From: an uncultured Gammaproteobacteria bacterium
Lineage (GTDB): Bacteria; Patescibacteriota; Patescibacteriia; Patescibacteriales; Patescibacteriaceae
NCBI GenBank assembly: GCA_964545125.1
Contig: CAZJEP010000005.1
Location: 1,447-65,446, forward strand
Direction: 5' to 3'
Length of the DNA: 64,000 nucleotides
Shown here: piece by piece, positions 15,400 to 44,758 of the stretch
Layout: each line of letters begins with the position of its first letter
How positions within the stretch are numbered: the stretch's first letter is position 1
Program-made: the position numbers and the translations under genes
The notes under the pieces: model-generated
Told to the model about the DNA's origin: nothing
The model's input: the letters and a program-made list of their open reading frames with translations, nothing else
Databases searched by the model: none

Positions 15400-15421
15400 A
15401 ACCAAAAAATAACAGAGGTGC

Positions 15422-18872: not shown

Positions 18873-18935
18873 AAATAATAAAATAAAATCAAAAGTTAAA
18901 AGTCAAACGGCAAAATTTCAAGTTAAAAATAAAAA

Positions 18936-19326: not shown

Positions 19327-19383
19327 ACTTTTAATCTTTTATTTTAATTTTTGCCCCTTGAACTTTGAATTTTGATTTAATTG

Positions 19384-21263: not shown

Positions 21264-22424
21264 TTATCTTTTCAGTTTATCCAGCTCTTCCTCTAGCGCC
21301 AATCTTTCCAAACTGCCCTCGGGATAGCGAGCCAACAGAGTCTGGGTTTCGGTAATCTGTTGCGCTTTCAGCTTGGCTTGCGCTTCTTCCTGATGATTAA
21401 CAGCGGTCGTTTTGGGAAAAATCTTCGGCTTAGTGACTGGAATAACCGGAGCGAATCTGGTTGAATTAGTTTCCTGAGCGCCAACATTTCGACCAAGCGG
21501 TTCTTCAGGAATAGCCACCGGAAAAATCATCCAATGCCTGGGATCGGAACTGGGCAAATTTTCCGGAAAAAATTTCAAGTTGCAATAAACCTGCAAAAGA
21601 TTGCTGAGCAGTTTCTTCTCGTCAAAATCCAAAAATTTGGCGTTGGGAGAATTGGTAACAAAATCAGACAAAGCCACCGCGTCAAACATACCACTACCCT
21701 TTTGCGTTATAAAATAAGACAACCAATTAGCCACCGTGGGGTCGACTTGTCGGCCATCCAAAACCAGGCGCTGACTGGTCAAAGTTTCCTGATTGTTAAG
21801 CAACAAATTAGCTAACTCACCCTGAATCTCCTCGCGAACGTTAAAAATTAAATGAAAAATAAAATCATTGATTTCCGACAAAACTTCGTTATCATTTGAG
21901 CTCAACATTTCCACCAAATTGTTAGCAAAAAATTCTTTAATTTTTTTCTCTCGCTCTTCCCAGTCAACATCTTCATCGTCTTCCGGTTCATCGACAAACT
22001 CCGGCGGTTCAGCCAACTGCTGGGCTACCCATTCGGCTTCCAGAGGAATGGCTCGCTGTTGGATTTCAGCATAACTTTGATATTTAGCCGAATCCCCTCC
22101 CCAAGAACTGATCAGACCGGAAATATCAACGCCCAACCAATCCGCCACCACCAACAAACGGGTGCCGGCAATATCGCAAGCCAGTTGGCGGGCCACCAAA
22201 TCGCTAAAACCAAAAAAGTTTTTGATGGTTTCCACCAAATTAGTCGCCGGAATTTCCTTTAAAAACAGCTGGGCGATTAAATCATAATAAATTCGCAACT
22301 GAGGCAGATTAAACTTATATTTATTGGCAATCAAAACATTGAGCTCGTCAGCTTTAAAAGAATCCAAATAGGCGTAAACTTCCGGGGGCAAATTTTTAGC
22401 CTTGGCTTTAAGGTTATCGTTCAT
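21264..22424 (-). CDS. hypothetical acidic protein
   Basis: 386-aa ORF whose start lies 3 nt from the stop of the upstream gene. Confidence 0.55.
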   Translation of the reverse strand: MNDNLKAKAKNLPPEVYAYLDSFKADELNVLIANKYKFNLPQLRIYYDLIAQLFLKEIPATNLVETIKNFFGFSDLVARQLACDIAGTRLLVVADWLGVDISGLISSWGGDSAKYQSYAEIQQRAIPLEAEWVAQQLAEPPEFVDEPEDDEDVDWEEREKKIKEFFANNLVEMLSSNDNEVLSEINDFIFHLIFNVREEIQGELANLLLNNQETLTSQRLVLDGRQVDPTVANWLSYFITQKGSGMFDAVALSDFVTNSPNAKFLDFDEKKLLSNLLQVYCNLKFFPENLPSSDPRHWMIFPVAIPEEPLGRNVGAQETNSTRFAPVIPVTKPKIFPKTTAVNHQEEAQAKLKAQQITETQTLLARYPEGSLERLALEEELDKLKR

Positions 22425-22427
22425 ATT

Positions 22428-25226
22428 TTAAATTATCTTTTCCAATTTAAGATAGGTTTCTATGGCGTCTTTATTAAGCGGTCCGGCGCCCTGCTCTTTT
22501 TGCGCCAAATTTCTCAAACCATTTAAAGTTTCTTTGCTTAAATCATTGGCTTGACCAAGTTTGCCAGAACCGGAAACTCCGGCCTCCCTCAAAACGTTTT
22601 TGATCATTTCGTTGTCTCTAGCTTTTGACAAATCGGCATCAAGGTCATTGTAAATATTTATTATTTTGGGTGATTCCGGATCAAAATTTTTGGTCTTTTC
22701 TACGGCAATCATTCTGGCTAAGTCAGGATTATTGCCACTTCTTTCCAGAGTTTTCAACCGGTCGGCGCTGGTGCTCTCAGCGATAACTTTAAGAGCTTCC
22801 GGACTAAGCTTATCGGAATTGATATTTCCTAGTTGCTTGGCCGAGGCCTTGGTGGCGTATTTCTCCAGATCGGCCACGTCAAGTTTTCCGTCAAGACCAG
22901 TAAAAGCTTTGGTGGCATCACCATTTAAATCCAAATTCAGACTGTCGGCCCGCAAATAAGTTAAATTTCCTTGGGCCTTCTTAATTTCGTCGGTATAATG
23001 ATCAATAACCTGCTGATTAGCCTCATCAGGATGATCTTGTTGAGCAACTTTAGCCAAATCAAGCTGATTTTTGGCATTAAGTAATTTTTCTTCTTCTCGA
23101 TGTGCCAACTCTCCCAAAGCCTCTGATAACTGTCCAGCTTGTTTAGGGTCACCATCTTTGTCTTTTTTGCTAAGAGCACTACTCCAACGTTCTTTTTTCA
23201 AAGCCTCTCTAAAGGCTTCGGTAAAATTAGCCAAATTCCTTCTATCCGCCTCAACCCCGACCTGCCCTCGAAGATTAGTTTGGGAATTAAGGTCAAAAGT
23301 GGAAAGATTTTGCTTGTCAAAATCTATCTTGTTTTTTTCAATCAGCTTCTTGAGGGCGGCTTTTTGATCAGCATTGGTCAAGTCAAACAGCAGTTCGGCT
23401 TGTTTTTCTTGGGTGGCACTTCGTAAGGCTTTGAGTTGGGCAGGGTTATTGGCAAAAAGTTCTTGCGCCTTATTAAAGGATTCTTTAGCGGTGGTTGACT
23501 CTAAATTTTTAAATTCACCTTTAGCGGCCAAAGCGGCATAGATACCTTTTAATTTACTTTTATCAGTGGTGCCACCAAGCAAGGAATGAAGCTCTTCGCT
23601 GCTCATATTCTTGTAAGGCGACATTAATTCTTCATATTCCTTGTTGGCCCGTTCTGTTTGAGCCACATCCTTGGCTGTGCCGAATTTACTGGCGTGCATA
23701 GCTTGGGCAAATTTATAACCAAAGCTACCAGGTACATAAGCTTTCAATTTAGACACAGCGCCAGTGTCACTAACCATGGTTCCGTCGTTCCTATTTTTAT
23801 CATATTTATACATAACATCGCCTTCTTTGTGGGCTCCGGTAACGGTCGCGGCCAAGCGTTGTTGAGTGACTGCTCGATTAAATTTGTTTTTGGTTAGTTT
23901 ATTAAAATTATCTTTCAAACCCTGTTTGGTCATTAAATTATTATACACAGCGCCGGCGCCCCTAGTGACAAACCCGGGTCTATCTCCGTATTCTCTGCCA
24001 AAAGCTTTAACTAAATTTCGCGAAGCTCTGTAGTCAACGGCCTTAGCCAAACCCAAACCGCCTCGTCCAACAGCTTTGGTGCCTTTCCAAGCGGCTCGAC
24101 CCGTGGCTTTGGTGGCTCCGACGGCCCCCCGCTTGGCTAAACCAAGACTCTTTCTCTTGGCCCAACCTGCTCCGCTTTGTAAGCGAGCCATGGCCGTGCC
24201 AGCCGTAGCGCCAGCCACCCCGCCAAAAGACTTGGCCACTATCAAACCGCCAAGCAACAAACCAATAGAAACAGCGAAACGCATTAAATGTTCGGTGGTG
24301 CCGACATCAGTGAGACCGACACGTGGACCGCCACTGGGAGTATTAAAACCGACGCCGTTAAGCAAACTGGAAGCGCTATTAAATTGACCCAAAGTAGCCA
24401 AAGACAACCAGATAAAAAAAGCTAAAATCGGACCGACAATTAAATTATTGGAAAACTGTTTCCACCAATTAGTGGTAACACCTCTAGTTAGGGGCGCCAC
24501 CGACCCCAAATAAGACAAGGGCGAAAGAATGATAAGAATCCACAGCATAACAACCCGATAAACCAAGGTTATCAACAAGGCAAACATCACCACCAGCATC
24601 ACAATAACATAAAGAAGGGCCACAATATAAGAAGCTACAACCCCCCAAAAATCATAACTACCCTGTTGCTGTCGGAGATTTTCCCAATCGGTGGCACTCA
24701 TAGAAAACAATTTATCCATACCCAGCAAAAAAACGAAATTATTGCCACCAACACCCTTAAAACCATTAACAAAAGTCAACATAATCACCTGAACAAAATC
24801 AATCAACACCCCGCAAATCATTTTGGAAAAATTAATAAGAATAGCAAAAATAATCACCCGCTTCAAAAGCTGTTTAATGCTATAATCTCGAATATGAAGA
24901 ATGGTGGCAAAAGCGATAATCAGCAAAATCAAAATAAAAAACATGTTGGACAAATCTCTGACAATTCCCCAACCCAAGACCACCGCCGGCATAGTAATAA
25001 AGCCGTTGTATTGAGCTACTTCGACCAAAACATTGATAACAATCAAAATTAATTGCCCAAGAGCCAAAATCAAAGCTACAATAATACTACCGATAACACT
25101 CAAAACGGCGTCAGTTATGTCGGAGGCTAGCGCAAAATGAGCCGGCACAACAAAAATTACCAACAGCATCAAAGCTAGGGCCAGGAATTTTTTGGGTTTA
25201 AAAAATTTAGCTACGCGTCTTAACAT
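22428..25226 (-). CDS. polytopic VirB6/TrbL-like membrane protein with a long Gly/Ala/Lys-rich and helical C-terminal extension
   Basis: At least 8 hydrophobic helices in the first 380 aa or so. These are followed by GGVAGATAGTAMARLQSGAGWAKRKSLGLAKRGAVGATKATGRAAWKGTKAVGRGG and then about 520 aa of K/E/A/L-rich sequence. Start trimmed to the ATG at 25226 (MLRRVAKFF). Confidence 0.5.
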   Translation of the reverse strand: MLRRVAKFFKPKKFLALALMLLVIFVVPAHFALASDITDAVLSVIGSIIVALILALGQLILIVINVLVEVAQYNGFITMPAVVLGWGIVRDLSNMFFILILLIIAFATILHIRDYSIKQLLKRVIIFAILINFSKMICGVLIDFVQVIMLTFVNGFKGVGGNNFVFLLGMDKLFSMSATDWENLRQQQGSYDFWGVVASYIVALLYVIVMLVVMFALLITLVYRVVMLWILIILSPLSYLGSVAPLTRGVTTNWWKQFSNNLIVGPILAFFIWLSLATLGQFNSASSLLNGVGFNTPSGGPRVGLTDVGTTEHLMRFAVSIGLLLGGLIVAKSFGGVAGATAGTAMARLQSGAGWAKRKSLGLAKRGAVGATKATGRAAWKGTKAVGRGGLGLAKAVDYRASRNLVKAFGREYGDRPGFVTRGAGAVYNNLMTKQGLKDNFNKLTKNKFNRAVTQQRLAATVTGAHKEGDVMYKYDKNRNDGTMVSDTGAVSKLKAYVPGSFGYKFAQAMHASKFGTAKDVAQTERANKEYEELMSPYKNMSSEELHSLLGGTTDKSKLKGIYAALAAKGEFKNLESTTAKESFNKAQELFANNPAQLKALRSATQEKQAELLFDLTNADQKAALKKLIEKNKIDFDKQNLSTFDLNSQTNLRGQVGVEADRRNLANFTEAFREALKKERWSSALSKKDKDGDPKQAGQLSEALGELAHREEEKLLNAKNQLDLAKVAQQDHPDEANQQVIDHYTDEIKKAQGNLTYLRADSLNLDLNGDATKAFTGLDGKLDVADLEKYATKASAKQLGNINSDKLSPEALKVIAESTSADRLKTLERSGNNPDLARMIAVEKTKNFDPESPKIINIYNDLDADLSKARDNEMIKNVLREAGVSGSGKLGQANDLSKETLNGLRNLAQKEQGAGPLNKDAIETYLKLEKII

Positions 25227-25228
25227 AT

Positions 25229-25876
25229 TTAAGGAAACAAAAGGGCCAAGATGTAACCAAGAAAACTTAGGGGGTCGACAATGGCCCAAACCAGCAAAAC
25301 AACCAAAACAGCAACCGCCAAGATAATAAACAGGGCCAGCAAATCCAATAAAATTAGTAACATAGCCTCAAAAATACCAATATTATCACCAAAAGTTTTT
25401 AGAGTTTTCTTGGCTTCTTTGTTGCCGGAAATAGCCACATTCAAACCGGGAAGATTTCTGGACCACTCATGACCCAACTTAGAAAAAAATTCACTGCCAG
25501 CCACCAAACGCATAAAAACATGAAGGTTGATATAAAGCAAAGTTAAACCCCAACTAGGAATTAAGTTCAACCAAGACTGTGCTAACAAACGGTCGGTGCC
25601 AAACCTAACAGGGGTTCCCAGAGCATTAACAGCGACCATCTCAGTTGTAGCCAGACTAACAGACATATTTTGTCGGGCCTGATGTCTAAGCGAACCCATG
25701 GCAGACTGTTTATCGTTACCTCGGTCTTTGGTAATGATTTTGTTTGTTTGTGCAGGCCTCTTGTTGCCAACAATCTTAATATTATTTTCAGATACATTTA
25801 AACTACGGCTAGCTCGCGCTTCCTGTCGTTGTCTCCTTAAATCATTGGCCAATTCCTGATCTGAATTTCCGACCAT
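25229..25876 (-). CDS. hypothetical membrane protein, first gene after the terminator
   Basis: Basic N-terminus and C-terminal TM helices. The track's start at 25978 lies inside the terminator hairpin, so I trimmed it to the ATG at 25876. Confidence 0.5.
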   Translation of the reverse strand: MVGNSDQELANDLRRQRQEARASRSLNVSENNIKIVGNKRPAQTNKIITKDRGNDKQSAMGSLRHQARQNMSVSLATTEMVAVNALGTPVRFGTDRLLAQSWLNLIPSWGLTLLYINLHVFMRLVAGSEFFSKLGHEWSRNLPGLNVAISGNKEAKKTLKTFGDNIGIFEAMLLILLDLLALFIILAVAVLVVLLVWAIVDPLSFLGYILALLFP

Positions 25877-25964: not shown

Positions 25965-26007
25965 AATAAAAAGGTCAAGCCCCGGCAATTAAGCTTGCCG
26001 GGGCTTG
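25965..26007 (-). terminator. strong intrinsic terminator downstream of the giant gene
   Basis: 13-bp stem caagccccggcaa / ttgccggggcttg with a 6-nt loop, followed on the minus strand by TTTTTATT. Confidence 0.75.
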
Positions 26008-26035: not shown

Positions 26036-29000
26036 TTATTGAAGATTTTTCCAGACAACCAAGGGATGATCCAAGAAGGGGTGGTTTTCTGGGCCAGCGT
26101 TAGGATTGCTATTTGGAGTAAAGGTGTTGGTGGCTCCCCAATTATCGGTCAAAATAATCTTGGGAATAATTTCACAACAATCAATGGCGGGGTTGTTGGC
26201 AATCTCTGATGGCAAACCCTGACAATTATTATGACTGCAATTACCACCGCCGTTTTTTATTTCGTCATAGCTCAAGAAATAATAAACCTGATGGCTATTG
26301 GTAATATCCGGACGCTCAAACATATTAACATTTCTGACCAAGGTAACATCATGATTGTTTTTCTGGTAACCCCAATTAATAACATATTTTTTCAAGGGCA
26401 ACTGATCCTTGTCTATCTTGCTGGCAAAATTGATAACCACCCAACCGGAATCGTTAAGGACATATTTGTCTCCTGACAGCAAGCTGTCGTTAAGTTTAAC
26501 CCGAGGCACAGTCGGACTGACCAAACAATAGTCATTATTGGAGCCATTATATTCCGGTCTGGTGTTATTGTCGCAATTTTTCAAAGCAAAATCAACTTGA
26601 CCGTTACCAATACCACAGCCACTGGCAGAATTTCGGTCATAAGACTGACCATTCCACTTATAGCAAGGGCTTTCATTGTCAACTTTAGTGAACAAACGCT
26701 TAACCGCCTCCACGGCTCGTTTTTTACTCGCCGTCTTATCTGAACTGGTATCTCTAATATCAGAGGCTAGGCGATAAAAATTGGTGTGGTTGAAACATTC
26801 AAACAAACAACCAACTGAAGCACTATCTCCGCAAACACGAGCATCAAGACAATAATCGGTGGCCCAACCAGTAAATTTACTGGTGGCATTATCTTTTGAT
26901 AGTTCACATTTCGTTTGATTATGACGATTACCCCTAGGATAAGATGGGTCATAGCAAACATAAGCATTAAGTGGTGGCATCAAATCATTGGTGGCCCAAA
27001 CTCTATAACCATTCTGATTGGTGGTTGTAATATATTCATATTTGTTGTTTCCCTGAAAGTCACGCCCACCAGGACCACGAGGAGTGCTACATTTTCGATC
27101 TTTGGCTGACCAGGTGCCACATTTATTATTCTCACAAGTAGCGCCATCTTCCCAAATCACAGCCAACCCCACAAAACAATCATCATAAACGCCCAAGTCT
27201 CTGGAGACATCTCGGTCTGTTTTACTGCAATCATTACAGTCGCTAACTTCTATCGGCAGTGGCTCCTGCTTTTGGCTATCCAAATTACCCGGACAATAAG
27301 CTCGACGCTCGCTACCTGTAACATTTTTATCTAGACCGGCTTGGCTAATGCCATAATAAGGTACAAAAGGCATTATTTTGCCTCTAATATTGCCAGCGCT
27401 CAATCTGTCGAACAAGGGCGGTTTAAGCGAAGAATAGGCGCCATAATAGCCACTGCCAGCCTGTTGGTTCAAAACAAGATCCGTGGCCTTGCCTCCGGCA
27501 TTAACCCCAAAATCAGCGTAAAAATAGGAAGAGGTTGGCGTTAGGTTATTGCTATCTTTGAAATTAGTTAATAAATTCGCCGGGATGCTGTAAACACTAT
27601 CCTGGGCAATACGGGAATACCAATAACTTTCTTTGTCCACTTTAATAAAAGTCTGACACTGAAATTCTGGCTGAGTCTTATTGGAACTGTTACAACCATC
27701 ATAAGCGTCCACACAATAATACAAGTCTTTGGGAATATTCAAAGCCACGCCCTCTTCGTATTCTTCGCTTTCCACTTTGTCAATCGGATACCACAAGAGA
27801 CAAGTACCCGAATTTTTCGGATCATATTCCAAACAATAGCCGGTCCAACCTTTCTTGCGCAAACCGCTGTCATCAAAATAATCGCAGGACATAGCATTGC
27901 CCTCTGGGTATAAACGACAGTCGCTATGCAAATATTGTTTGATTTTGTTAGCACTACCGTCATCTTTGATATTGAGACCGGGTTCCAATCTGACATCGTC
28001 AAAATAAACCAAGCCAGCGGTAGGCTTAATCCCAATGGTAATTCTGGTGTCGCGCTCCAGACCCGAAGGCAAGTTTCTTTGATAAGCGTTAGAAATGGAG
28101 AATTTTCCGGTTAAACGAACCCAACGACCAGCCACACTAGTGGAAGCCAGAACGGCCGCCGGGATAGAGGCGCCATCGGCATCGGTGGCATTGCACAAAT
28201 TAGCAGTAGTATCGTTAATGGATTCAAAAGGACACTCGTAATCAGGATCATAACCTCTTTGCCTTAAATTTCTACCCACGGTCAGCTCCACCTTGGCGCC
28301 ATAACGCAAGAAAACATAAGCGGAGACAATATATTGGCGATTGCCCGCATTGGTAACTTCTTTGACCACAAACTCGTTGGTTTTGCCCACAGCCCGACCA
28401 TCAGGAATAATCTTATAACTGCCAAAACCTAGTTCTTTTTCTATAACCTTGGCATCGCTGACGATAGGGGCCCTGGTAGTAGCGGTGCGGAAATCCACAA
28501 AATCGGTTTGCCAAGCATTTTCAAAACTGCCATCAAATTTAACTTTAGCATCACCTTCTTGTTTCATGGTAGCCAAATTATACAAATCGGCATTCCAATA
28601 ATTACCCTCGTAACCAACCTTGGAGTAACCGGTCAAGTTGGAAATATCCAGGGCGGCTGAGCCGGAAATATAAGTTTGGTTGGTGGCCGGATCCTTGGAA
28701 ACAAAATGAATACATTCTCCGGATTCGTTCATTTGGTCGCACAAACCGCGTTCGTAGCAAATCTTGTCCCCGGCTTTGGCCGGATTTTCCGTGTAGCTCT
28801 TACAACCCAGCCAAGCGGAACATTGTCGATCAGGATCAACCTTCAACAAAGCGTTGGCATTATTTTCATTGTCATTGCTGGCGTTTTGCGGGGCCTGTTC
28901 CGAACCGTCGCGGTTTACTCCGCTGGCATTAACATCCCAAACTAAAGGACTGTATTTACCGCCGTTAAAGGCGCGTTCATTAAACAACACCTGACCCTTA

Positions 29001-32000
29001 TCCGGATTAACCGTATTGGGCTTGTCTTGGTTAAGACTGGTCTTGAGACGATAATTAACTAAAGCCTCCCTGATTTGCGCTCCAGCGGGCGGAGTAATAG
29101 TACAATCAGCGGGCTGATTATCCAGCAAAACACTGTTGTCAGCAAAAAAGGCCCCATCAATATAAAATTCTTCACTTTGTTTAACCGTCTTGACCTGATC
29201 GGTGGCCGTAATGATATTATCCTCACCCAAACGATGTAAACGAACTCGTCGCTGATTGCCAGGCGCATTGGGCTGATTGAGATTGACTGCCTTGGTGCAA
29301 GAAATAGTTATTTCGTTGGTAATGTTTTTTAAAACATACAAGGTGTCAAGTTTTAATTTAACTTTGCCGCTGACGACACCGGTCAGAAGATCATAATTAA
29401 CTTTGGATTCCGGATCAATATATTCCGTGCAACTGTTTTGATTGTCCGGACACAAGCCGGCATTGCCAAGCGTCTTACCGGTAGCGTCTTTCACAGCCAT
29501 ACCCACCGGCTGGACCTTGGCTTCACGCACTCCCAAACCGATAGTCTTGTCATAATCTAGCGGATCGCACCGTTCGTCATTGTCAATTAGCTGGCATTTG
29601 GTGCCGACCGAACAATCGGACTGGTTGTCGCAAGAAAATTTGCTGGCGCAATACTGATCGGCGCCGATGGTGACGCAATACTTGCCGTTACCGCAGACTT
29701 TACCGGTCTGAGCGTCAACCGGACAACCCTTGTCGGCGCTAACGCAATGACTGGTTTTTATTTTGTACCAAGCCGGCTCGCTGGCGCTAGACGGTTGTCG
29801 ATATTCGCAAGTGCGCAAACCAGGATCTTTAAAATAAGCTTCGCCTCCGCCTTCTAAACCCCAAGCCTCGCAACCGACCTGATCCTTGGAACACATGGTA
29901 TCTTTGTAATTATTGGGGTCGTTCAACAAATAAACATCCTTATAAGCCTCAGCCAAATCGTCGTATTGTCCTAAACGCGAACAGCCTTTGTCGGCCACCC
30001 GACATTCTTTGGTCTTTTCATAAACCACATAAGCAAAATTATCGGCTGGCACAACAATATTATTAAATCTTTCTTCGCCGTAAAAACTGGAATTATGAGT
30101 ATCAATCATTAATTCGCAACCAACCGCGCTATCTTGGCACAATTTATCAAAACCCTTGAGATTATGAGTTTTATCGGAGCGATCTTTGTACTGTTCACAA
30201 CCCAACATATACAGAGGAGCTGGATTACCAAATAAATCTTGGTTGCAAGAATCTGGGGTCGTCCAAGAATTTCTAATCAAATAATAAGTGTCGGACATTT
30301 CTAAAATCTTAATGTTGTCCAAACGCAAGTCAGCCCCCTGTCCGCCCAAAGTGAATTTTATTTTAGACGAAACGACGTCTTGTTCACCGGGGATGGTTAA
30401 ATCAAATTTATAATTTTTCCAATCGGCTGTGATATCAATATTATCGGCAAAAGCCTGATTAAAACCCGAGTCGCTTTCTATGGCAATCCTGGAAATATTG
30501 ACGTTGTCCGACTTCTTCTTGGCCGTAAAGCTTAAAACATATCTCTTGCCAATTTTTAAATTACTGGTAATGCTTCTTTCAATTTGAGATCCACCCGGTT
30601 TTAAAGAATGCCCGCCCACGGTTAAAGAATCCGAGACCATTTCCACTGGCGGTTTCGGGCCCCAACCGCTTAAGCTGCCCTCAAAAGTATCATAAAATAA
30701 AATTTTAATTTGATTGCCAAAATCACCCTCGTATTCACTACAACCAACCTCGCTAGCGCTACAAGTTTGACTCTTGGTGGGATCGGCCAAATAAACGCAA
30801 GCTTGGTGATCGTCCATCCAGACTCCGCCGTTAAGACAAACAATACAATTTAGTTTGTCGGCGTCCCAATGTCCCAGCTTAGCCTCGCAAGTGGCCTGGT
30901 CAGTAATAGAAACATCAATATTATTATTAACCAAACGATAAGGGTGGCACTCCTTGGAATAAGTGATAGTGGAGGCCATTAAGTGATAAGAAACATTGCC
31001 ATCACGGCCATAGAATTGACGACAATCGGAATTATACAACGGGTGGTCATAGGGTAAAGAATAAAGGGTTTCGTTACAGGCGTCGCCATCGTTGTTGTCG
31101 GCGGTATTGGTGTCGTCGATAGTGGCCGGCTGGCTAATGCCACTAGTTTTGTCCGGATTGGCCAACAACTGATAAACCACCAACTGATAACCAGACTCGT
31201 CCGAACCCTCCCAAGTATAAAACTCAGCATAAACATCATCCGGTTGGCCACAACGGCGGAACTTGGCAAAATACTGATTTTCTTCTCCGCCCGAGGGAAC
31301 TTTGTCCAAATTAACAAACAAAGAACAACCCACGGCATTGGCCTGACAAGTTTTGGCTGTCTTGGGAATAAAATATTCATCACGCGCCGAATAAAAATTA
31401 TTAGCTTTTTGAATAAAAGTGTCATAACCGACGCACTCGTTGGGGCAATAGTCTTTAGGCTTGACCTGGGCCGCCGTTTGATCTTTGGTGTTAACTTCGG
31501 TGTACAACTCGCAACCCACTTCATCGGCTTGGCACTTGCGAGCAAACTCGGAACACTTAGCCGGAGCATCTACTTTAAAGTTGAAATCTTTGTTTTTGTC
31601 TTGATAGCAAGCATCTTCCAAATAATTCGGCAAAAGTTTTTCGTACAGCAGGTTATCTAAACGGTAAGCGGAATATTGACCGCCACTACCCATTTCAAAC
31701 TTCATGTTGTCCACAAAAAATTCGGTGTCTGGACTAATGCCGGAAATTTTCCAGAAATCCATTTTGGCGGCATTGTCGTTGAGTAAGGTCAAAACCATAT
31801 TCTGCCATTCACCAGTGGCTGAAGAATAAATAACCTGGGCGTTGGCCGGATCGGCGCTGTTGCCCATGGTCATCTCCACACTGCCACTAACCACATAAAC
31901 GAAAGCCGACAGCGTATAGATACGATCAAAGTCAAAGGCAAATCCTCCGGGCAACAAACTTTTGTCGTCTGGACCGTAATAAACTCCACGTCTGCCCGCC

Positions 32001-34573
32001 GGCACTTTCAAACTCAAGCCTCCCTGATAAATTTGGTTGCCGGGAGTATTATTGACCAAATCTCCGGAAGCAGACCAACGAGCATCATCAGATGCTTCTA
32101 GTCCCCCATCGGCCAATAAATTAACACCGTTATCATCTTTGACTCTGATAAATTCATGACAACCTTCTTGTTTGTAAGCGCAAGCTCCGGTTTTGCGATT
32201 CAAATAAATATTTTGATTATTGAACCAATTAACCGTGTTGTCGGCCCCATTGTAAGTTCCATTATAAGAATATTCCTTGCAACCAATAGCTGATTGCTGA
32301 CAGCCGTAATCCAAAGTATTGGTTAGATAAGAAACTTTCTGTCCTTTGGGATTTTTGAAAGATTGACAAGTGCTAAACAAAGGATCGCAAGCCTCGTCTT
32401 GCCTGTTTTTATTAAAAATCCAAGAACGTTTTTCCTCGGCGCAATAGCCTCTAAACAAACAAGCGCCGTTGCGACCCTCTTTCAAACAGCCTTGTTCGTC
32501 GGCGCAATAATTATCGTTGCGGTTGACTAAAAGTTTTTGTTCATTGTAAGTGCAAGTAGCCTGGCAAGAAAAATTTCTCAATTCCTTTTCTTTGCCAGGA
32601 ATCATCAATTTGTCTCTGGCCCCCAATTCAGCCTCGGTGCAACAATCATCGTTGGTTTCGCAGGCGTCCAGTTTGCCGTCAACAATCATCCTGGTAGATC
32701 CGTTATCAGCCGAACAATACTTCAAGCCAGTTGTCATCAAGTCGGGATCTTTGACTAATTGCGGACCATAACCTTGGCGCGCGCAATAATATTCCGGCAC
32801 TTTCAAGACCCAGTTGGGATCAACCAAACCGCGACACCAAGGAGCGTCATAACCCCTAAAATTGTCATTAGTATTATAACAAGCCAATAAATCATTAAGA
32901 GTTATTCCCTCCGGCTTATCGGCAAAATCATTGGTTAAATATTTTTTCTGAATGGCTTGAGCGGCCACTTCCCATCCCACCGGTAAAATGCGATATTTTC
33001 TTAAAATAATCAGGGAACGATAAGGATAACCTTGGTTATAAGGAATTTTGTCTTCACCGTTTTTATCAAAACCAAAGGGCCAATTACCAGGCAGTTGGCC
33101 GGATCTGACCGCTTCGGCTACCGTCATTTTGTTTTCAATGGCCGTAGAAAATTCGTTGCCAATAACGCAGTCGGTGGGGCCGGGTCGATCCGGATTGGTA
33201 CAAGCGGTTAATTGTGCCAAGATATCTATTTTGCCACCAGCCGAAAATGTCGGTTCGGTTAATTTGCTGAGTCGGTTTTCAATGGCTTGCCGGCCGACCT
33301 GCTGACCAGTCCAATAACTCAAACTGCCACCTTGACTGCCCAAGTTGCTCATCAAGTTGGTCCAAGAACTGATAGCCCACTGATTTAAGAAAATATTGGC
33401 GGCATCCACCAAAATATCCCCGGTAATTTTGCCCAAATTATCCCACACCGCCTGATCGGCCAATTTCTTTCTCTCCTCGGCGCCATTGGGCGCTCCTTTA
33501 AGCAAACCGGCAAAATTAACATCATCTTTATAGCCATTCTTGGACGGCAAAGAAATTTGGTCGTTAATAACTTGCTTATTGCGATATTCAATTAAATTGC
33601 TGTTCAACAGAAAAGCGGCCCCCAAATCACTGCCGGTCGGATGAAAATTATCCGCCACATTTTCCAAAAAATCTTCACTGGCTAAACTTTTTTGACGCTC
33701 CCATTCGTTAACCCAGTTTTTTTTCATTTGGCTAAAACTACAATGAGTCTGCGAACCGTAATACTGGCTTAGACCCAAACCCAAACTAATCATCAAGGAA
33801 ACATTTAGGCTGGGGTTACAAATATTAAGTCTGGCTAAAGGACTATTAGCACCATTAAACATAGGCGCTCGACGAGCCTGCTCTACCGCGCCACCAGCAT
33901 TTTGCGAACAAGCATTATAAGTGGCCAAACAAGCGTTTAAACAAGCTGTGCTGGGTGGTCCTGATTGACTACAATTACTATCGCACCTTCCTTTGGCATC
34001 ACTACACAAACTCAAACCAGCGCTGACATCACCGCTACTATTCAAACAAACATTATAAGCGTCTTCACAGGCCTTGGTTTGCTCTGGAGTATAGGGGCCA
34101 GTGCCCAGCCGAGCATAACATTCCATTTTTTGCTTATCACAAATAACCTTGCTCTCCTTTTTAATATCTTCGGCAGCGATGTCGGAAATAATCGAATTGG
34201 CAAAACTTTCGATAAAATCACCGGCCGCTTGATCGGCAATATCCTCCCAATGATCTCCCCATTTTTTTTCAATGTATAGTTTTTCTTGTCCTTTGGCGCC
34301 GATGGCCAAATATTTAGCCGCGTCTACGGCCAAATCATTGATATATTTACGCAAAAGGTTTTGAAATAAAATAGTGGCCACCTTATTGCGAACATATTCC
34401 CAGGCAGTCTTAATCCAGTTGGCAGTGGCCGGAATATCCGCTACCACCGTCGTGGTATCCGCCACCCCCAAAATTGCCTCGGCTTGAGGCGCCAACAACA
34501 AATTAGACAATAAAATTAAACTAAAAAAAATTAAAGCAATTTTGAGTTTATGTTGCTTGGTGGTTTTAAACAT
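26036..34573 (-). CDS. giant (2845 aa) secreted cysteine-rich surface protein with three CBM/jelly-roll-like modules
   Basis: Uninterrupted 8.5 kb ORF with a signal peptide ...LLLAPQAEA. It has at least 9 copies of a C-x(4,5)-GC-x-x-aromatic motif, for example CQADEVGCELYTE and CSASEVGCSEYEG. Three modules end FFVDNMKFE, LRLDNIKILE and VYFDDVRLE. Confidence 0.85.
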   Translation of the reverse strand: MFKTTKQHKLKIALIFFSLILLSNLLLAPQAEAILGVADTTTVVADIPATANWIKTAWEYVRNKVATILFQNLLRKYINDLAVDAAKYLAIGAKGQEKLYIEKKWGDHWEDIADQAAGDFIESFANSIISDIAAEDIKKESKVICDKQKMECYARLGTGPYTPEQTKACEDAYNVCLNSSGDVSAGLSLCSDAKGRCDSNCSQSGPPSTACLNACLATYNACSQNAGGAVEQARRAPMFNGANSPLARLNICNPSLNVSLMISLGLGLSQYYGSQTHCSFSQMKKNWVNEWERQKSLASEDFLENVADNFHPTGSDLGAAFLLNSNLIEYRNKQVINDQISLPSKNGYKDDVNFAGLLKGAPNGAEERKKLADQAVWDNLGKITGDILVDAANIFLNQWAISSWTNLMSNLGSQGGSLSYWTGQQVGRQAIENRLSKLTEPTFSAGGKIDILAQLTACTNPDRPGPTDCVIGNEFSTAIENKMTVAEAVRSGQLPGNWPFGFDKNGEDKIPYNQGYPYRSLIILRKYRILPVGWEVAAQAIQKKYLTNDFADKPEGITLNDLLACYNTNDNFRGYDAPWCRGLVDPNWVLKVPEYYCARQGYGPQLVKDPDLMTTGLKYCSADNGSTRMIVDGKLDACETNDDCCTEAELGARDKLMIPGKEKELRNFSCQATCTYNEQKLLVNRNDNYCADEQGCLKEGRNGACLFRGYCAEEKRSWIFNKNRQDEACDPLFSTCQSFKNPKGQKVSYLTNTLDYGCQQSAIGCKEYSYNGTYNGADNTVNWFNNQNIYLNRKTGACAYKQEGCHEFIRVKDDNGVNLLADGGLEASDDARWSASGDLVNNTPGNQIYQGGLSLKVPAGRRGVYYGPDDKSLLPGGFAFDFDRIYTLSAFVYVVSGSVEMTMGNSADPANAQVIYSSATGEWQNMVLTLLNDNAAKMDFWKISGISPDTEFFVDNMKFEMGSGGQYSAYRLDNLLYEKLLPNYLEDACYQDKNKDFNFKVDAPAKCSEFARKCQADEVGCELYTEVNTKDQTAAQVKPKDYCPNECVGYDTFIQKANNFYSARDEYFIPKTAKTCQANAVGCSLFVNLDKVPSGGEENQYFAKFRRCGQPDDVYAEFYTWEGSDESGYQLVVYQLLANPDKTSGISQPATIDDTNTADNNDGDACNETLYSLPYDHPLYNSDCRQFYGRDGNVSYHLMASTITYSKECHPYRLVNNNIDVSITDQATCEAKLGHWDADKLNCIVCLNGGVWMDDHQACVYLADPTKSQTCSASEVGCSEYEGDFGNQIKILFYDTFEGSLSGWGPKPPVEMVSDSLTVGGHSLKPGGSQIERSITSNLKIGKRYVLSFTAKKKSDNVNISRIAIESDSGFNQAFADNIDITADWKNYKFDLTIPGEQDVVSSKIKFTLGGQGADLRLDNIKILEMSDTYYLIRNSWTTPDSCNQDLFGNPAPLYMLGCEQYKDRSDKTHNLKGFDKLCQDSAVGCELMIDTHNSSFYGEERFNNIVVPADNFAYVVYEKTKECRVADKGCSRLGQYDDLAEAYKDVYLLNDPNNYKDTMCSKDQVGCEAWGLEGGGEAYFKDPGLRTCEYRQPSSASEPAWYKIKTSHCVSADKGCPVDAQTGKVCGNGKYCVTIGADQYCASKFSCDNQSDCSVGTKCQLIDNDERCDPLDYDKTIGLGVREAKVQPVGMAVKDATGKTLGNAGLCPDNQNSCTEYIDPESKVNYDLLTGVVSGKVKLKLDTLYVLKNITNEITISCTKAVNLNQPNAPGNQRRVRLHRLGEDNIITATDQVKTVKQSEEFYIDGAFFADNSVLLDNQPADCTITPPAGAQIREALVNYRLKTSLNQDKPNTVNPDKGQVLFNERAFNGGKYSPLVWDVNASGVNRDGSEQAPQNASNDNENNANALLKVDPDRQCSAWLGCKSYTENPAKAGDKICYERGLCDQMNESGECIHFVSKDPATNQTYISGSAALDISNLTGYSKVGYEGNYWNADLYNLATMKQEGDAKVKFDGSFENAWQTDFVDFRTATTRAPIVSDAKVIEKELGFGSYKIIPDGRAVGKTNEFVVKEVTNAGNRQYIVSAYVFLRYGAKVELTVGRNLRQRGYDPDYECPFESINDTTANLCNATDADGASIPAAVLASTSVAGRWVRLTGKFSISNAYQRNLPSGLERDTRITIGIKPTAGLVYFDDVRLEPGLNIKDDGSANKIKQYLHSDCRLYPEGNAMSCDYFDDSGLRKKGWTGYCLEYDPKNSGTCLLWYPIDKVESEEYEEGVALNIPKDLYYCVDAYDGCNSSNKTQPEFQCQTFIKVDKESYWYSRIAQDSVYSIPANLLTNFKDSNNLTPTSSYFYADFGVNAGGKATDLVLNQQAGSGYYGAYSSLKPPLFDRLSAGNIRGKIMPFVPYYGISQAGLDKNVTGSERRAYCPGNLDSQKQEPLPIEVSDCNDCSKTDRDVSRDLGVYDDCFVGLAVIWEDGATCENNKCGTWSAKDRKCSTPRGPGGRDFQGNNKYEYITTTNQNGYRVWATNDLMPPLNAYVCYDPSYPRGNRHNQTKCELSKDNATSKFTGWATDYCLDARVCGDSASVGCLFECFNHTNFYRLASDIRDTSSDKTASKKRAVEAVKRLFTKVDNESPCYKWNGQSYDRNSASGCGIGNGQVDFALKNCDNNTRPEYNGSNNDYCLVSPTVPRVKLNDSLLSGDKYVLNDSGWVVINFASKIDKDQLPLKKYVINWGYQKNNHDVTLVRNVNMFERPDITNSHQVYYFLSYDEIKNGGGNCSHNNCQGLPSEIANNPAIDCCEIIPKIILTDNWGATNTFTPNSNPNAGPENHPFLDHPLVVWKNLQ

Positions 34574-34574: not shown

Positions 34575-35312
34575 TTATTTATTAATCATAGAATGATACA
34601 TTTCTAATAATTGTTCGTCACTTATTTTACCTAAAGCATCTTTGTCTTCCTGTTTAGTAGCGGCCGAAATTAACTGGGAGCGCAAATATTGGGGATCGGG
34701 ATTGTCGCCAAAAGCCTGTTGTAAAGAACCGGCGCTGGCCGAATCAAGGGGCTGGATGGTAACAGGGGTGGTAACAGCTGAACCGTTAGTAGTGGCGCCA
34801 GAGCTATTAAATAAATCAACCGTCGTAGTAACGCCTGAACTAAGCTGTTCACTGCCGATAATCAAACCATCGGCGCTGCATTGTTTGCCTTCAGGACAAT
34901 TAGGGTTAGTGCTATTTTTAATTTCTTGCTGATCCGAAATACCGTCGCCGTCAGTATCCACCAAAAAAGGCGAAGTAAGATAAACGGTTAATTCTTGAAC
35001 ATCGGTCAAACCATCACCGTCCGTATCTTTGTTGTCGGAAGTAGCTAGTGGCGCTTGGTTGGCATTGTCGGCAGCCACTTTATTTTCAAAACTGGTCTTA
35101 CTCATACCTCCGTAAAAAGGGTAAGTAATATTTTTATTCAGCTCTCTGAACCAAAAAATTATGACAAGCAAGGTAAAACAAGACAAAACAGCCACACCAA
35201 TTTTTTGTTCTTTGGTTAGCCGTAAAGAGTGATTGAGATCCACCTGTTTGGGAGAACCTGCCTGTCCGGCGGGCAGGGATTGTAAATCACCAAAATTTGG
35301 CACTTGCGCCAT
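34575..35312 (-). CDS. membrane-anchored protein with thrombospondin type-3-like Ca-binding repeats
   Basis: One TM helix, then DNKDTDGDGLTDVQE and VDTDGDGISDQQE repeats. Its stop lies 1 nt from the giant gene's ATG. Confidence 0.6.
   Translation of the reverse strand: MAQVPNFGDLQSLPAGQAGSPKQVDLNHSLRLTKEQKIGVAVLSCFTLLVIIFWFRELNKNITYPFYGGMSKTSFENKVAADNANQAPLATSDNKDTDGDGLTDVQELTVYLTSPFLVDTDGDGISDQQEIKNSTNPNCPEGKQCSADGLIIGSEQLSSGVTTTVDLFNSSGATTNGSAVTTPVTIQPLDSASAGSLQQAFGDNPDPQYLRSQLISAATKQEDKDALGKISDEQLLEMYHSMINK
35257..35277. repeat. CCTGCC-N9-GGCAGG hairpin element, in frame in the CDS (encodes LPAGQAG)
   Basis: cctgcctgtccggcgggcagg. Confidence 0.8.
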
Positions 35313-35347: not shown

Positions 35348-36226
35348 TTATACCATAAATTGTTTAGCCAAGCCAAGCAGTTTTACCCAATCGGCCAAGG
35401 ACAAGTCTTCGGCGCGAGTGAGCGGATTCAATTCGGCCCTGACAAGCAAGTCTTGAGTCTCGGTAGCGGTTATTTTTAAACCATTGGCCAAATTATTTTT
35501 GAGCATTTTTCGTTTGGAGCTAAAACCAATTCTAGCTAAACGAAAAAATTTTTTTTCATCAACTTGAAACTTATGATTTAAAACTTGCAATTTGATAATG
35601 GCGCTATCCACAGCCGGCACCGGCCAAAAATCGTTTCTGCTAACCGGAGCGATAATTTTAGCTTCGACAAAAAATTGTACCGATAAAGCCAACAAGCTCA
35701 TCTCTCCGGGACCAGCCACGAGGCGCTGGGCCACTTCTTTTTGCAACATCAAAGTTAGCGAGGTCGGCTTAAAATTCCCGGACAAAAATTTGCGTAAAAA
35801 AATCGAAGTAATGTTATAAGGCAAGTTGGCCACGATCTTATATGAACCTTTAATTCCTGCCTCGCCGGCCTGCCTACCGGCAAGACAGGTAGGCAGGTTG
35901 AATTTTGAATTTTGAAAATCCAAAATGTTAGCTTGGACGACTTGAACATTTTTAATCCCCTGACTTTGCAACCTGGTCGGCAAAATGGTGGCTAACTTTT
36001 GATCCAGCTCCACAGCCAAAACCGACTTAACTCGCTCGGCTAATAAAAAAGTTAAGAAACCAAGTCCTGGCCCGACCTCCAACACCGTGTCGTTTTTGTT
36101 TAAGTCAGCTGTTTTAACAATCTGTTCGTAAACCGTTTCGTTGATTAAAAAATTCTGCCCGCGCGATCGCGTGGGCTTGATGTGATAAAGACTACATAAT
36201 TCCCTGGTTTCCTGTAACAAATCCAT
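35348..36226 (-). CDS. rsmA: 16S rRNA (adenine1518/1519-N6)-dimethyltransferase
   Basis: RSRGQNFLINETV, VLEVGPGLGFLT and IVANLPYNITS. Start trimmed to the ATG at 36226. Confidence 0.9.
   Translation of the reverse strand: MDLLQETRELCSLYHIKPTRSRGQNFLINETVYEQIVKTADLNKNDTVLEVGPGLGFLTFLLAERVKSVLAVELDQKLATILPTRLQSQGIKNVQVVQANILDFQNSKFNLPTCLAGRQAGEAGIKGSYKIVANLPYNITSIFLRKFLSGNFKPTSLTLMLQKEVAQRLVAGPGEMSLLALSVQFFVEAKIIAPVSRNDFWPVPAVDSAIIKLQVLNHKFQVDEKKFFRLARIGFSSKRKMLKNNLANGLKITATETQDLLVRAELNPLTRAEDLSLADWVKLLGLAKQFMV
35851..35897. repeat. compound CCTGCC/GGCAGG hairpin element in frame inside rsmA (encodes LPTCLAGRQAGEAG)
   Basis: cctgcctcgccggcctgcctaccggcaagacaggtaggcagg. The 9-bp arms are cctgcctac (35869-35877) and gtaggcagg (35889-35897). 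Confidence 0.8.
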
Positions 36227-36298
36227 GAGATTAAAATATAATCCACAAACAACAAACAACAAAAACTAAAGGTAACTTGTTATTTGTTATTTGTTATT

Positions 36299-39876: not shown

Positions 39877-40602
39877 ATGAATAATTATAACCAACCGACC
39901 CCTACTCTTAACCCCGCACAAAAGAAAAAAACCTGGATATTGATTGCGGTTATTTTGGGTCTCTTTGTTGTTCTGTCTTTATCTATGACCAAATTTGTCG
40001 GCAACAAAGTTGGTCAATTTTACAATTCGGAACAAGCCCGCACCTCCGCCGAAGCCACCGACAATCTGTATAACTCCGAGAAGCAACTTCGTTATGAGGG
40101 CTTGGATAATGTTTGGAATGTTTTTGGTAGCGCTAAACCAAAAATAACTATTGTCGAATTTGGAGATTTTACTTGTCATTACTGCAAAAACAATTATCCC
40201 GTCATCAGGGCCGTGACTATGCGCCACCAAGATACGGTGCAGTTAATTTTTCGCGATCGCACGCCCGACCAGCGCTCTCTCGGTTTGTCGCTAGTAGCGC
40301 AATGCGCCGGTGAACAAGGAAAATTTTGGGTCATGCACGATAAACTGTATCAAAACCAAAGCGATACTTTGGGCAACGACTTTGCGCAACTGCTGACTTT
40401 AGGGCAAAGCATTAATTTGGACGAAACCACTTTTCGTGATTGTTTAATCAAACAAAAATATTTAAGCAAAATCAAAAAAAACATGCAAAGCAGTTTGGAT
40501 TTGGGCATCAAGGGCACCCCGACTTTTTTCATTAACGGCAAAGAATACGTGGGAGAATTATCCGAAAGTCAACTAGAAGAAATAATTAAAGAATTAGAAT
40601 AA
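39877..40602 (+). CDS. membrane-anchored DsbA-family thiol:disulfide oxidoreductase
   Basis: N-terminal TM helix and a thioredoxin fold with FGDFTCHYCK (CxxC). Confidence 0.75.
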   Translation: MNNYNQPTPTLNPAQKKKTWILIAVILGLFVVLSLSMTKFVGNKVGQFYNSEQARTSAEATDNLYNSEKQLRYEGLDNVWNVFGSAKPKITIVEFGDFTCHYCKNNYPVIRAVTMRHQDTVQLIFRDRTPDQRSLGLSLVAQCAGEQGKFWVMHDKLYQNQSDTLGNDFAQLLTLGQSINLDETTFRDCLIKQKYLSKIKKNMQSSLDLGIKGTPTFFINGKEYVGELSESQLEEIIKELE

Positions 40603-40604: not shown

Positions 40605-41144
40605 ATGATTGAGATAAGAATCCATGGTTTAGGTGGACAAGGTGTCGTGACAATGTCAGAAATCTTGGCCTTGGCTTGTTACGAATCCGGCCGAGAAGTC
40701 CAAGTTTTTCCCTGGTTTGGTCCGGAACGCACTGGCGCGCCGGTTACCGGCTTTATTCGCCTAGACGACAAACCAATTCGCCTGCGCTCGCAAATTTACC
40801 AACCGGATATTATTATCGTTACCGATACCAGGCTTTTAAGCAAAATAAAAGTAGCCGAAGGAGCTAAACCAACAACTCGTTTGCTGATAGCCACACCTCA
40901 ATCCTGCTCCGAAACAGTCAAAACCATCAAATTAAAAAACGACCAAATAATTTGTTATAATGTCGAGTCGGTTACTACTGATAAACGTCTGGCCAACAGC
41001 GCTATTTTGGGTTTTGCGGCTAAAACTCTGAATTTAGCCAGTTTGGCTAATTGCCTAAAAGCCGTTAAAATAAAATTAAAATACAAAGACGTCCAAATCA
41101 TAAAGGCCAATCTTGAGGCTGTTACCAAGGGTTATGCCAGTTAA
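40605..41144 (+). CDS. porG: pyruvate/2-oxoacid:ferredoxin oxidoreductase gamma subunit
   Basis: IRIHGLGGQGVVTMSEILA...FPWFGPERTGAPV. Confidence 0.8.
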   Translation: MIEIRIHGLGGQGVVTMSEILALACYESGREVQVFPWFGPERTGAPVTGFIRLDDKPIRLRSQIYQPDIIIVTDTRLLSKIKVAEGAKPTTRLLIATPQSCSETVKTIKLKNDQIICYNVESVTTDKRLANSAILGFAAKTLNLASLANCLKAVKIKLKYKDVQIIKANLEAVTKGYAS

Positions 41145-43262: not shown

Positions 43263-43284
43263 CCTTAAAAACTGTTATTGACCC

Positions 43285-44747: not shown

Positions 44748-44758
44748 ATTAAAATACC

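Follow-up and report, generated by a model that had tools for sequence, protein, structure and literature searches.

A giant cysteine-rich secreted protein with CBM4/9-type modules, encoded beside type IV secretion-like genes of Falkowbacteria-type Patescibacteria, as a candidate host-contact element

A 64,000-nt stretch of patescibacterial DNA (contig CAZJEP010000005.1 of assembly GCA_964545125.1, referred to below as the window, in whose numbering all coordinates are given) carries a single gene for a giant, cysteine-rich, secreted protein directly upstream of genes resembling those of type IV secretion systems (T4SS). With confidence only a little better than even, we read the product of this gene as the Sec-exported, host-glycan-binding arm of the T4SS-like apparatus of Falkowbacteria-type Patescibacteria. 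Much of the bacterial diversity not yet in culture belongs to the Patescibacteria; the representatives cultivated so far live attached to host cells, and in the only one amenable to genetics the T4SS-like system is essential. A role as host-binding arm is proposed because the cluster found here appears to be of the type described in a survey of Patescibacteria T4SS (Quinonero-Coronel 2025; MPF-FATA-like, with TrsD, PrgI/VirB3, VirB6 and VirB2-like pilins, and no relaxase; PMC12102498), because no PrgB-like adhesin was detected in Patescibacteria by the same survey (PMC12102498), and because the T4SS is essential for the epibiotic growth of a Saccharibacterium (PMC10633639; PMC12857230). The family of the giant protein provides a concrete, lineage-wide candidate for the contact element of the Patescibacteria T4SS; it upsets no expectations, and turns the question of how T4SS-like systems engage hosts into one of defined protein parts. 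The adhesin role and the 'tip' position suggested for the protein in a preliminary description of the window are both retained here as candidates.

The giant gene (26036..34573, minus strand) consists of an uninterrupted open reading frame (ORF) of 2845 codons running from an ATG start to a stop codon, exactly as first described, and encodes a protein with a predicted size of ~310 kDa. Its N-terminal signal peptide (aa 1-33, 34475..34573, minus; ..LLLAPQAEA / ILGV, the cleavage site being placed by the AxA pattern) had also been recognized earlier, and was confirmed by the presence of a hydrophobic segment at aa 8-38, ending LLLAPQAEA, which is the only such segment of the protein and is followed by no further transmembrane-like stretch. 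An N-terminal hydrophobic segment was found in 143 of 149 full-length relatives. No LPXTG motif was present in the giant protein or near the C-terminus of the 149 relatives, a motif check of the giant returned neither RGD nor YD motifs, and Pfam returned no match to the wall-anchoring domains SLH, LysM and CWB. Cysteine accounts for 108 residues (3.8%); 59 of these reach ≥90% conservation among 66 relatives, and Cys is the most conserved type of residue (mean 0.70), ahead of Trp. The nine instances of a C-x(4,5)-GC motif listed in the preliminary description were all recovered (aa 758, 798, 1014, 1076, 1271, 1479, 1561, 1708 and 1918) and a tenth was added at aa 1524. The strict form of the motif, C-x(4,5)-GC-x2-[FYW], occurs seven times against 0.06 expected and a maximum of two in 2000 shuffles, and a relaxed form ten times against 0.68 expected; all Cys of the ten units are invariant across 40 homologues. 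The description of the product as secreted and disulfide-rich was supported, and dozens of disulfides would stabilize the predicted extracellular protein.

Three modules of the giant protein are mutually homologous members of the CBM_4_9 family of carbohydrate-binding modules (CBM) and have the galactose-binding-domain-like jelly-roll fold. Their existence had been surmised earlier from nucleotide ranges that fell within ~50 nt of those given here, and was borne out by Pfam, hhalign and AlphaFold. Module 1 spans aa 813-973 (31655..32137, minus) and ends FFVDNMKFE, module 2 spans aa 1291-1426 (30296..30703, minus) and ends LRLDNIKILE, and module 3 spans aa 2005-2215 (27929..28561, minus) and ends VYFDDVRLEP. 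Pfam CBM_4_9 (PF02018) matched module 2 at aa 1291-1409 with an E-value of 4.9e-12 and 46.8 bits for a cut-off of 25.9, and most homologues bear the same precomputed label. Comparison of the modules with one another by hhalign yielded probabilities of 97.2% for modules 1 and 2 and of 95.7-95.8% for module 3 versus either of the other two (E 3e-11 to 8e-9), whereas control comparisons of the modules with other regions of the giant remained below 3%. Searched against PDB sequences, the profile of the whole family returned only CBM4/9/16/22 chains, at three separate regions, the chains matched at module 2 being 4d0q, 4xup and 1gui. AlphaFold produced confident beta-sandwiches at aa 813-973, 1295-1425 and 2005-2215 (pLDDT 76-95; ~90 for module 1 and 76-90 for module 3), a positive outcome for the folding test that had been set for the modules. 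Foldseek returned CBM16/22/4 and the receptor-binding domain 1 (RBD1) of CDTb with TM-scores of 0.6-0.76, its output being silent on which module was matched; the model of aa 34-1165, which comprises module 1, returned CBM16/22/4 with TM-scores of 0.6-0.68. Many phage tail-fibre and receptor-binding proteins were found as well, and matches to the CBM module prevailed in each of the three fold searches. From these models, carbohydrate binding by the three modules is assumed. In a subgroup of relatives (P0021, P0022, P0025), the precomputed Pfam label assigned to the lectin module is not CBM_4_9 but DUF642 (PF04862).

The different regions of the protein have diverged at very different rates, as estimated from mean pairwise identities across 66 full-length members. 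The three Cys-rich linkers ranked highest (0.51, 0.50 and 0.45 for linkers 1, 2 and 3), followed by the N-terminal region (0.40 for aa 34-140 plus 241-620), the lectin modules (0.29, 0.34 and 0.29 for modules 1, 2 and 3), a stretch comprising aa 2331-2680 (0.26) and an insert at aa 141-240 (0.23). The extreme C-terminus is conserved, with P2726, N2811 and W2812 invariant. With the linkers most conserved and the lectin modules divergent, the protein thus appears to be built as a fixed, disulfide-stapled scaffold carrying fast-diverging binding modules, and a gradient of this kind in the alignments is the pattern expected of a fixed scaffold with ligand-specific heads. The fast evolution of the lectin modules, which had not been remarked upon in the preliminary description, could allow them to serve as host-range markers from metagenomes.

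Relatives of the giant, annotated at source as 'hypothetical protein', are numerous. An initial set of 43 homologues shared 23-64% identity with it and nearly all measured 2560-2990 aa, and the length of the family as a whole is near-constant (2476-3033 aa). A profile of aa 34-700 run against 1.84 billion cluster representatives (50% identity) matched 1381 proteins at E≤0.001, 1042 of them at E≤1e-30. Some 120 of the best 150 proteins are 2400-3060 aa long, the rest being shorter and mostly fragments; among the matches listed, the domain begins within the first 200 residues in nearly all. A second search with the N-terminal profile produced 15 proteins, mostly fragments, including three useful distant relatives. 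When one GTDB genome per species was scanned with a query pattern from the aa 453-690 domain, relatives were found in 373 species genomes. Named genomes with the family belong to Candidatus Falkowbacteria, Parcubacteria or 'Patescibacteria group', in line with the origin from the ultrasmall Patescibacteria (candidate phyla radiation, CPR) first proposed for this DNA. The size of the family (>1000 clusters) had not been remarked upon.

To document gene order, the window proteins were compared by tblastn to 83 non-redundant loci within 10-kb flanks, each neighbour being counted only where a locus had enough flank. Upstream of the giant, the TSP3 protein was present in 65 of 71 loci, and adjacent in most; KsgA followed in 61 of 64 and the leucyl-tRNA synthetase LeuRS in 53 of 57. 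A membrane DsbA was found in divergent orientation in 46 of 55 loci, with a pilin-like gene beyond it in 39 of 49. On the downstream side, a VirB6-like gene was found in 45 of 52 loci, a homologue of the window's 215-aa gene in 41 of 59, and two acidic proteins kept the same position in 30 of 49 and 25 of 48 loci. PrgI, TraC/TrsD-like and VirB4 followed in the same order in at least 23 of 47, 21 of 44 and 13 of 27 loci, respectively, numbers that are lower bounds because detection relied on single sequences. The order of the T4SS block in the window is repeated in L004, L005 and others. Co-occurrence of the giant with T4SS genes in related genomes had been put forward as a test of their linkage, and this linkage held both in the count of VirB6-like genes and in the arrangement found in distant lineages. 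In L087 (~26% identity), the order reads LeuRS, KsgA, TSP3-like, a 1702-aa protein, a 2031-aa protein and a VirB6-like protein 35% identical to that of the window. The 1702-aa protein matches aa 53-1619 of the giant and the 2031-aa protein parts of aa 1909-2293, and each has its own signal peptide; the giant is thus split into two secreted proteins in this lineage. The locus of P0058 comprises a pilin array, KsgA, a 192-aa protein, a 1456-aa relative, a 1752-aa protein and further pilin genes. In L088, KsgA and a TSP3-like protein precede a relative of 3214 aa, the other neighbours being different. The ksgA-TSP3-giant triplet is kept at ~23-27% identity, even where leuS and all other neighbours differ. 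Neither the conserved divergent DsbA nor the split form of the gene had been noted previously.

The giant gene is thereby placed among genes for extracellular assembly, namely DsbA, VirB2-like pilins with Cys-rich extensions, SLT and 3D hydrolases and the T4SS channel. In the model that we favour, the giant would be co-made with a single-pass membrane protein bearing TSP3 (Ca-binding) repeats, encoded 1 nt upstream, and would be oxidized by the neighbouring membrane DsbA. The conserved aa 34-690 would hold the giant non-covalently at the cell surface by binding the TSP3 protein and/or portions of the VirB6-like protein or of the VirB2-like pilins that lie outside the cell, a non-covalent mode of attachment being proposed because both an LPXTG motif and a transmembrane anchor are missing from the giant. 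The conserved linkers, with their repeated C-x6-C hairpin units, would provide a stiff scaffold for the display of the three fast-evolving CBM4/9-type modules and of the variable C-terminal region. These variable parts would in turn attach to glycans on the envelope of the host cell and draw the secretion channel or pilus up to it, the giant thus cooperating with the T4SS. Parts of this arrangement that lend themselves to separate study are the three lectin modules, the conserved candidate docking region and the small TSP3 partner.

A number of observations weigh against a host-binding arm working with the T4SS. Housekeeping ksgA and, usually, leuS are neighbours as conserved as the T4SS genes, which weakens the argument from synteny because the gene order may reflect inheritance; of all neighbours, ksgA is the one most consistently retained. 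Within the window, the giant is separated from the T4SS block by the strong terminator noted in the preliminary description, an intrinsic-terminator-like hairpin (25976..26007, minus; 13-bp stem with nine GC pairs, 6-nt loop and T-run), the 3' side of which overlaps a promoter-like sequence (TTGACC-16-TATATT, 25978-25951). Seven of the 52 loci (13%) have unrelated genes in place of a downstream T4SS block, as in L001, where the downstream genes encode LexA and SecA. Glycan binding by the modules is an assumption drawn from their fold. About 85% of the protein is without a recognizable fold relative, which leaves room for a catalytic or other function of the N-terminal 690 aa. Lastly, a constant architecture combined with strong conservation is met more typically in components of machines than in adhesins. 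In L003, a gene for a BNR/Por_Secre_tail protein occupies the downstream position of the T4SS block.

Several of these points would suit a general scaffold of the envelope or surface layer that binds the cell's own wall glycans, has no functional tie to the T4SS and owes its position to inherited gene order, an explanation that we consider unlikely yet deserving of serious attention. The most deeply conserved arrangement is indeed ksgA-TSP3-giant, with ksgA a housekeeping gene; the giant has its own terminator and is not followed by the T4SS block in 7 of 52 loci; a constant length and a highly conserved scaffold befit a structural protein; and CBM-type modules could bind polymers of the cell's own wall. 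Such a scaffold would not account, however, for T4SS, pilin, SLT and DsbA genes lying on both sides of the giant and persisting at 26% identity amid changed neighbours, nor would the ligand-binding modules be expected to evolve fastest if their target were a conserved self polymer; furthermore, the protein has no SLH, LysM or other known wall-anchoring domain. Should the link to the T4SS amount to inherited order only, the giant would still be the largest of the conserved proteins on the surface of Falkowbacteria-type cells and define an unannotated domain family that merits curation.

It is less probable, in our estimation, that the giant represents a previously unseen extracellular component of the T4SS itself, in the form of a TSP3-anchored, disulfide-stapled stalk or tip that bridges to the host. 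In such a component, the helical N-terminus could contact the pilus or channel or insert in the host membrane, and other lineages could build the same part from two separate secreted proteins. To our knowledge, monoderm T4SSs have no stalk or tip part of this kind.

Slightly more doubtful still is a secreted enzyme or toxin acting on the host envelope, in which the CBMs would direct an unrecognized catalytic domain, located within the N-terminal 690 aa, to its target, much as in multidomain glycoside hydrolases. Modules of the CBM4/9/16/22 type retrieved in the PDB searches are classically appended to glycan-degrading enzymes, and the domain at aa 453-690 is confidently folded, strongly conserved and endowed with the invariant charged residues R519, E535 and D570. 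Yet no catalytic family was matched in Pfam, NCBIfam or PDB sequences, searches with profiles at E≤10 included, and the peptidoglycan hydrolases SLT and 3D are encoded separately nearby. The C-terminus, moreover, is conserved and not cassette-like, and no immunity-type gene comes next. A polymorphic toxin (Rhs/YD or CDI-like) was rejected on account of the missing YD motifs, the conserved C-terminus and the nature of the downstream gene, which encodes a membrane protein of the T4SS block.

Improbable as well is an integral extracellular machine part other than an accessory adhesin, be it a stalk, a pilus tip or a host-membrane translocon. What favours it is a machine-like conservation with constant size across >1000 clusters, the long N-terminal helices, a faint match to the translocator SseC at aa 371-443 and the fact that no tip protein is known for the VirB2-like pilins of these systems (PMC12857230). 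The SseC match, however, is insignificant (Pfam; 2 of 12 members, E 0.013-0.12), confidence in the model of the helical region is low, and the giant constitutes a separate transcription unit in the window. Searches with the whole giant and with 12 N-terminal regions gave no Pfam match to VirB5/TraC profiles at E≤1, and the giant is 13 times larger than VirB5 pilus-tip proteins, which are three-helix bundles of ~220 aa. No giant features in the descriptions of Saccharibacteria T4SS (PMC10633639, PMC12857230).

An assembly artefact, pseudogene or chance ORF can practically be dismissed as far as sequence data go, nothing having been found for it save a frame change in L010 and a frameshift-rich assembly in L086. 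Against it, a 69-kb NCBI contig has yielded an identical protein, dozens of positions do not vary, and the giant is a single intact ORF in all 65 distinct complete loci. More broadly, a single intact one-frame ORF of ~2500-3000 aa was found in most of 85 fetched loci, the exceptions being contig-end truncations, the frame change of L010 and a short form in L084. No tandem, direct or dispersed DNA repeats were found in the giant gene, and no internal repeats were detectable by BLAST in its product; collapse of repeats during assembly is therefore not an issue and was rejected as a source of artefact. The integrity of the gene, for which frameshifts and collapsed repeats had been named as tests, was thus upheld. 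In L086, LeuRS is broken into three ORFs and the giant truncated to 889 aa, and in L010 the giant is spread over two frames. Short 'family members' listed in databases thus need not be genuine and can result from errors of assembly or sequencing.

Returning to the giant as host-binding arm of the T4SS, its nearest functional counterpart may be sought in pCF10-type systems, in which the genes for surface adhesins precede those for the channel. Like the giant, PrgB (MPF-FATA, pCF10) is a large Sec-exported surface protein encoded just upstream of VirB6/VirB3/VirB4-type genes, and the presumed role of both is alike, namely contact with target cells via surface polymers. The two proteins are nevertheless without homology: the giant exceeds PrgB more than twofold in length, is rich in cysteine, carries CBM4/9 lectin modules and has none of the polymer-adhesin/Ig-like (antigen I/II type) domains, LPXTG motif or RGD of PrgB; it is also chromosomal and lineage-wide, whereas PrgB is plasmid-borne. 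Of the features that would define a PrgB-type protein, the giant thus displays adjoining MPF-FATA channel genes, and lacks the LPXTG and polymer-adhesin domains. CBM4/9/16/22 proteins share with the giant modules the same beta-sandwich and a terminal hydrophobic-D-D/N-hydrophobic strand in each; unlike in usual CBM proteins, the modules of the giant are attached to no recognizable glycoside hydrolase and make up ~15-18% of the protein. The same jelly-roll module serves to recognize glycans on target-cell surfaces in phage receptor-binding proteins and tail fibres (CenC-type CBM heads) and in the RBDs of binary toxins (CDTb RBD1, iota Ib), as reflected in a Foldseek TM-score of up to 0.76 for CDTb RBD1 and many tail-fibre matches in BFVD; this likeness is limited to the single module (global TM-score ~0.1), and the giant is without baseplate, tail or pore-forming domains. 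In reelin repeats and in the C-terminal region of Cry1A protoxin, jelly-rolls alternate with small Cys-rich units as they do in the giant, and both headed the list of multi-domain proteins that Foldseek matched to aa 1166-2300. With an rmsd of ~30 Å, TM-scores of 0.08-0.16 and identities of 7-9%, this likeness is almost certainly one of convergent design and not of homology. Giant surface proteins have been proposed to mediate host recognition in Vampirococcus lugosii, an epibiotic/predatory CPR bacterium (PMC8080830); by their description, on which the present comparison is based, those proteins harbor WD40, PKD, integrin, fibronectin and saposin domains, and no link to a T4SS is described. 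Giant surface proteins of CPR bacteria (PMC8080830), CBM modules and T4SS-linked adhesins are thus already known kinds. The family described here, its pairing with TSP3, its location next to the T4SS genes of Patescibacteria, its split form and its scaffold-versus-head pattern of conservation were not found in the literature searched.

Outside of the three lectin modules, the earlier statement that the giant has no characterized homologue was supported by the lack of matches in Pfam, NCBIfam and the PDB. A whole-protein Pfam scan returned CBM_4_9 only, and NCBIfam returned nothing. Profiles of aa 34-700 and aa 2301-2845 gave no match to PDB sequences at E≤10, and their Pfam matches at E≤1 were confined to insignificant ones to SseC, an EGF and domains of unknown function (DUFs). 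AlphaFold models, for which the alignments consisted of the window segment and full-length proteins from the protein search, were obtained for aa 34-1165 (mean pLDDT 63.7; residue numbers in this model are those of the protein minus 33) and aa 1166-2300 (mean pLDDT 67.8). The N-terminal region (aa 34-452, 33218..34474, minus), proposed as a putative docking domain, is predicted to be helical, with two helices of ~45-50 residues in a low-confidence model. It holds the invariant motif GDILVDAANIFLNQ and the variable Cys-helical insert at aa 141-240, has no PDB or Pfam match other than SseC, and showed no relation by BLAST to the other proteins of the gene cluster. The conserved alpha/beta domain that follows (aa 453-690, 32504..33217, minus; pLDDT mostly 83-94) carries the most striking invariant motifs of the protein, YPYRS..ILRKYRILPVGWE and WC.GLVDPNWVLK. 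Cys-rich linker 1 (aa 691-812, 32138..32503, minus) has C-x5/6-C hairpin units at 690, 705, 729, 758 and 798, linker 2 (aa 974-1290, 30704..31654, minus) at 1014, 1076 and 1271, and linker 3 (aa 1427-1620, 29714..30295, minus) at 1479, 1524 and 1561. The three linkers have in common a repeat of ~75-100 columns with C-x6-C units (hhalign 81-84%, the repeat of linker 1 versus linker 2 scoring 84%), and the natural split of the gene in L087 falls just 3' of the region encoding linker 3. A beta-rich region (aa 1621-2004, 28562..29713, minus) with hairpin units at 1708 and 1918 comes next; aa 1585-1915 were modelled mostly as strands (pLDDT 70-87), and hhalign revealed no relation of aa 1621-2004 to the CBM modules. 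The C-terminal third (aa 2216-2845, 26039..27928, minus) falls into three parts by conservation, a conserved Cys-rich stretch at 2216-2330, the variable 2331-2680 and a terminal domain of ~165 aa, whose PKD-like sequence pattern serves as a lead only.

The TSP3 partner encoded upstream of the giant (34575..35312, minus; 245 aa) is a single-pass membrane protein with its transmembrane segment at aa 37-55, TSP3 repeats on the extracellular side and a TSP3_bac match at E 2.7e-10. Its stop codon TAA (34577-34575) is separated by 1 nt from the ATG of the giant at 34573; the adjacency to a Ca-binding-repeat gene reported in the preliminary description therefore stood, and the translational coupling reported with it would follow from this spacing. 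TSP3_bac matches were obtained in all seven partners scanned, remote lineages included, with scores ranging from 40 bits to a weak 11.8 bits (E 0.23) for a Pfam cut-off of 25 bits. The idea that the paired TSP3 repeats resemble a dockerin with a cohesin-like partner was rejected: no Dockerin match was found in the seven partners at E≤10, and the sole cohesin match, a faint one, came from another gene at a distant locus. Upstream of the TSP3 partner lies the 16S rRNA methyltransferase gene ksgA (35348-36262), inside the 3' end of which a promoter-like sequence was noticed (TTGGCT-18-(TG)TATAAT, 35376-35347).

The T4SS-like genes announced on the 3' side of the giant were verified as VirB6-like, PrgI/VirB3, TraC/TrsD-like and VirB4-like, all on the minus strand. 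The block begins with a gene for a 215-aa protein (25229..25876, its start re-assigned to the ATG at 25876) that matches no family and carries two hydrophobic helices in its C-terminal part. The VirB6/TrbL-like polytopic membrane protein comes next (22428..25226), with ~8 transmembrane segments and a hydrophilic tail of ~600 aa; its closest curated relatives in NCBIfam, both below cut-off, are the Mollicutes ICE protein Mbov_0396 TM and the conjugal transfer protein MMCAP2_0566. It is of the 'extended' type and its tail is rich in Lys, Ala and Glu. Two acidic, soluble proteins of 386 and 430 aa without transmembrane segments or family matches (21264-22424 and 19935-21227) may be unrecognized cytoplasmic T4SS components. 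They are followed by PrgI/VirB3 (19384-19854; PrgI 4.8e-9), a TraC/TrsD-like protein (18201-18872) and a VirB4-like ATPase (16230-18161; P-loop_TraG 3.9e-27). By its content of VirB4-like, TraC/TrsD-like, PrgI, VirB6-like and pilin-like genes, the cluster appears to fit the type surveyed in Patescibacteria. Beyond virB4 lie a ComF-like protein (double zinc ribbon plus phosphoribosyltransferase, 14656-15444, minus) and RecG (7622-9778, minus), in agreement with the association reported for class ABY1, whose T4SS loci have comF and recG nearby (PMC12102498). In the window, prgI and the TrsD-like gene, near-contiguous in L004 and L005, are separated by a 511-bp gap (18873-19383, minus), probably a disrupted insertion, with two short minus-strand ORFs of 57 and 61 aa. 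We take these ORFs to resemble halves of a four-helix-bundle / 23S rRNA intervening sequence protein.

On the other side of the giant, the plus strand encodes a membrane-anchored DsbA-like oxidoreductase (39877..40602; Thioredoxin_4 4.3e-23, DSBA 2.2e-13; transmembrane segment aa 20-38), which probably provides both the giant and the Cys-rich pilins with disulfides. VirB2-like pilins with Cys-rich extensions, whose family matches are weak and below cut-off, are encoded at 42429-43262 and 44759-46414 (plus), and between them an SLT lytic transglycosylase (43285-44028, plus) and a 3D-domain protein (44139-44747, plus). A third VirB2-like pilin of 318 aa (5269-6225, minus) passes the Pfam threshold with an E-value of 1.4e-11. 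With 277, 551 and 318 aa, the three pilins are far longer than usual, the first bearing a 10-Cys C-terminal extension.

The pilin-like, SLT, 3D-domain and second pilin-like genes (42429-46414) interrupt a set of pyruvate:ferredoxin oxidoreductase (POR) subunit genes, the gamma/alpha part of which lies at 40605-42300 and the TPP-binding beta part at 46269-47294 (plus). A similar interleaving is present in L004 (1-4207), where two unannotated genes lie between POR_N and TPP_enzyme_C. Finally, dozens of metagenome-assembled genomes deposited as third-party annotations that carry the locus with the same synteny (L011, L014-L017, L019, L023, L025 and others) are titled 'uncultured Gammaproteobacteria bacterium' and one is titled 'Bacillota', labels that are almost certainly wrong.

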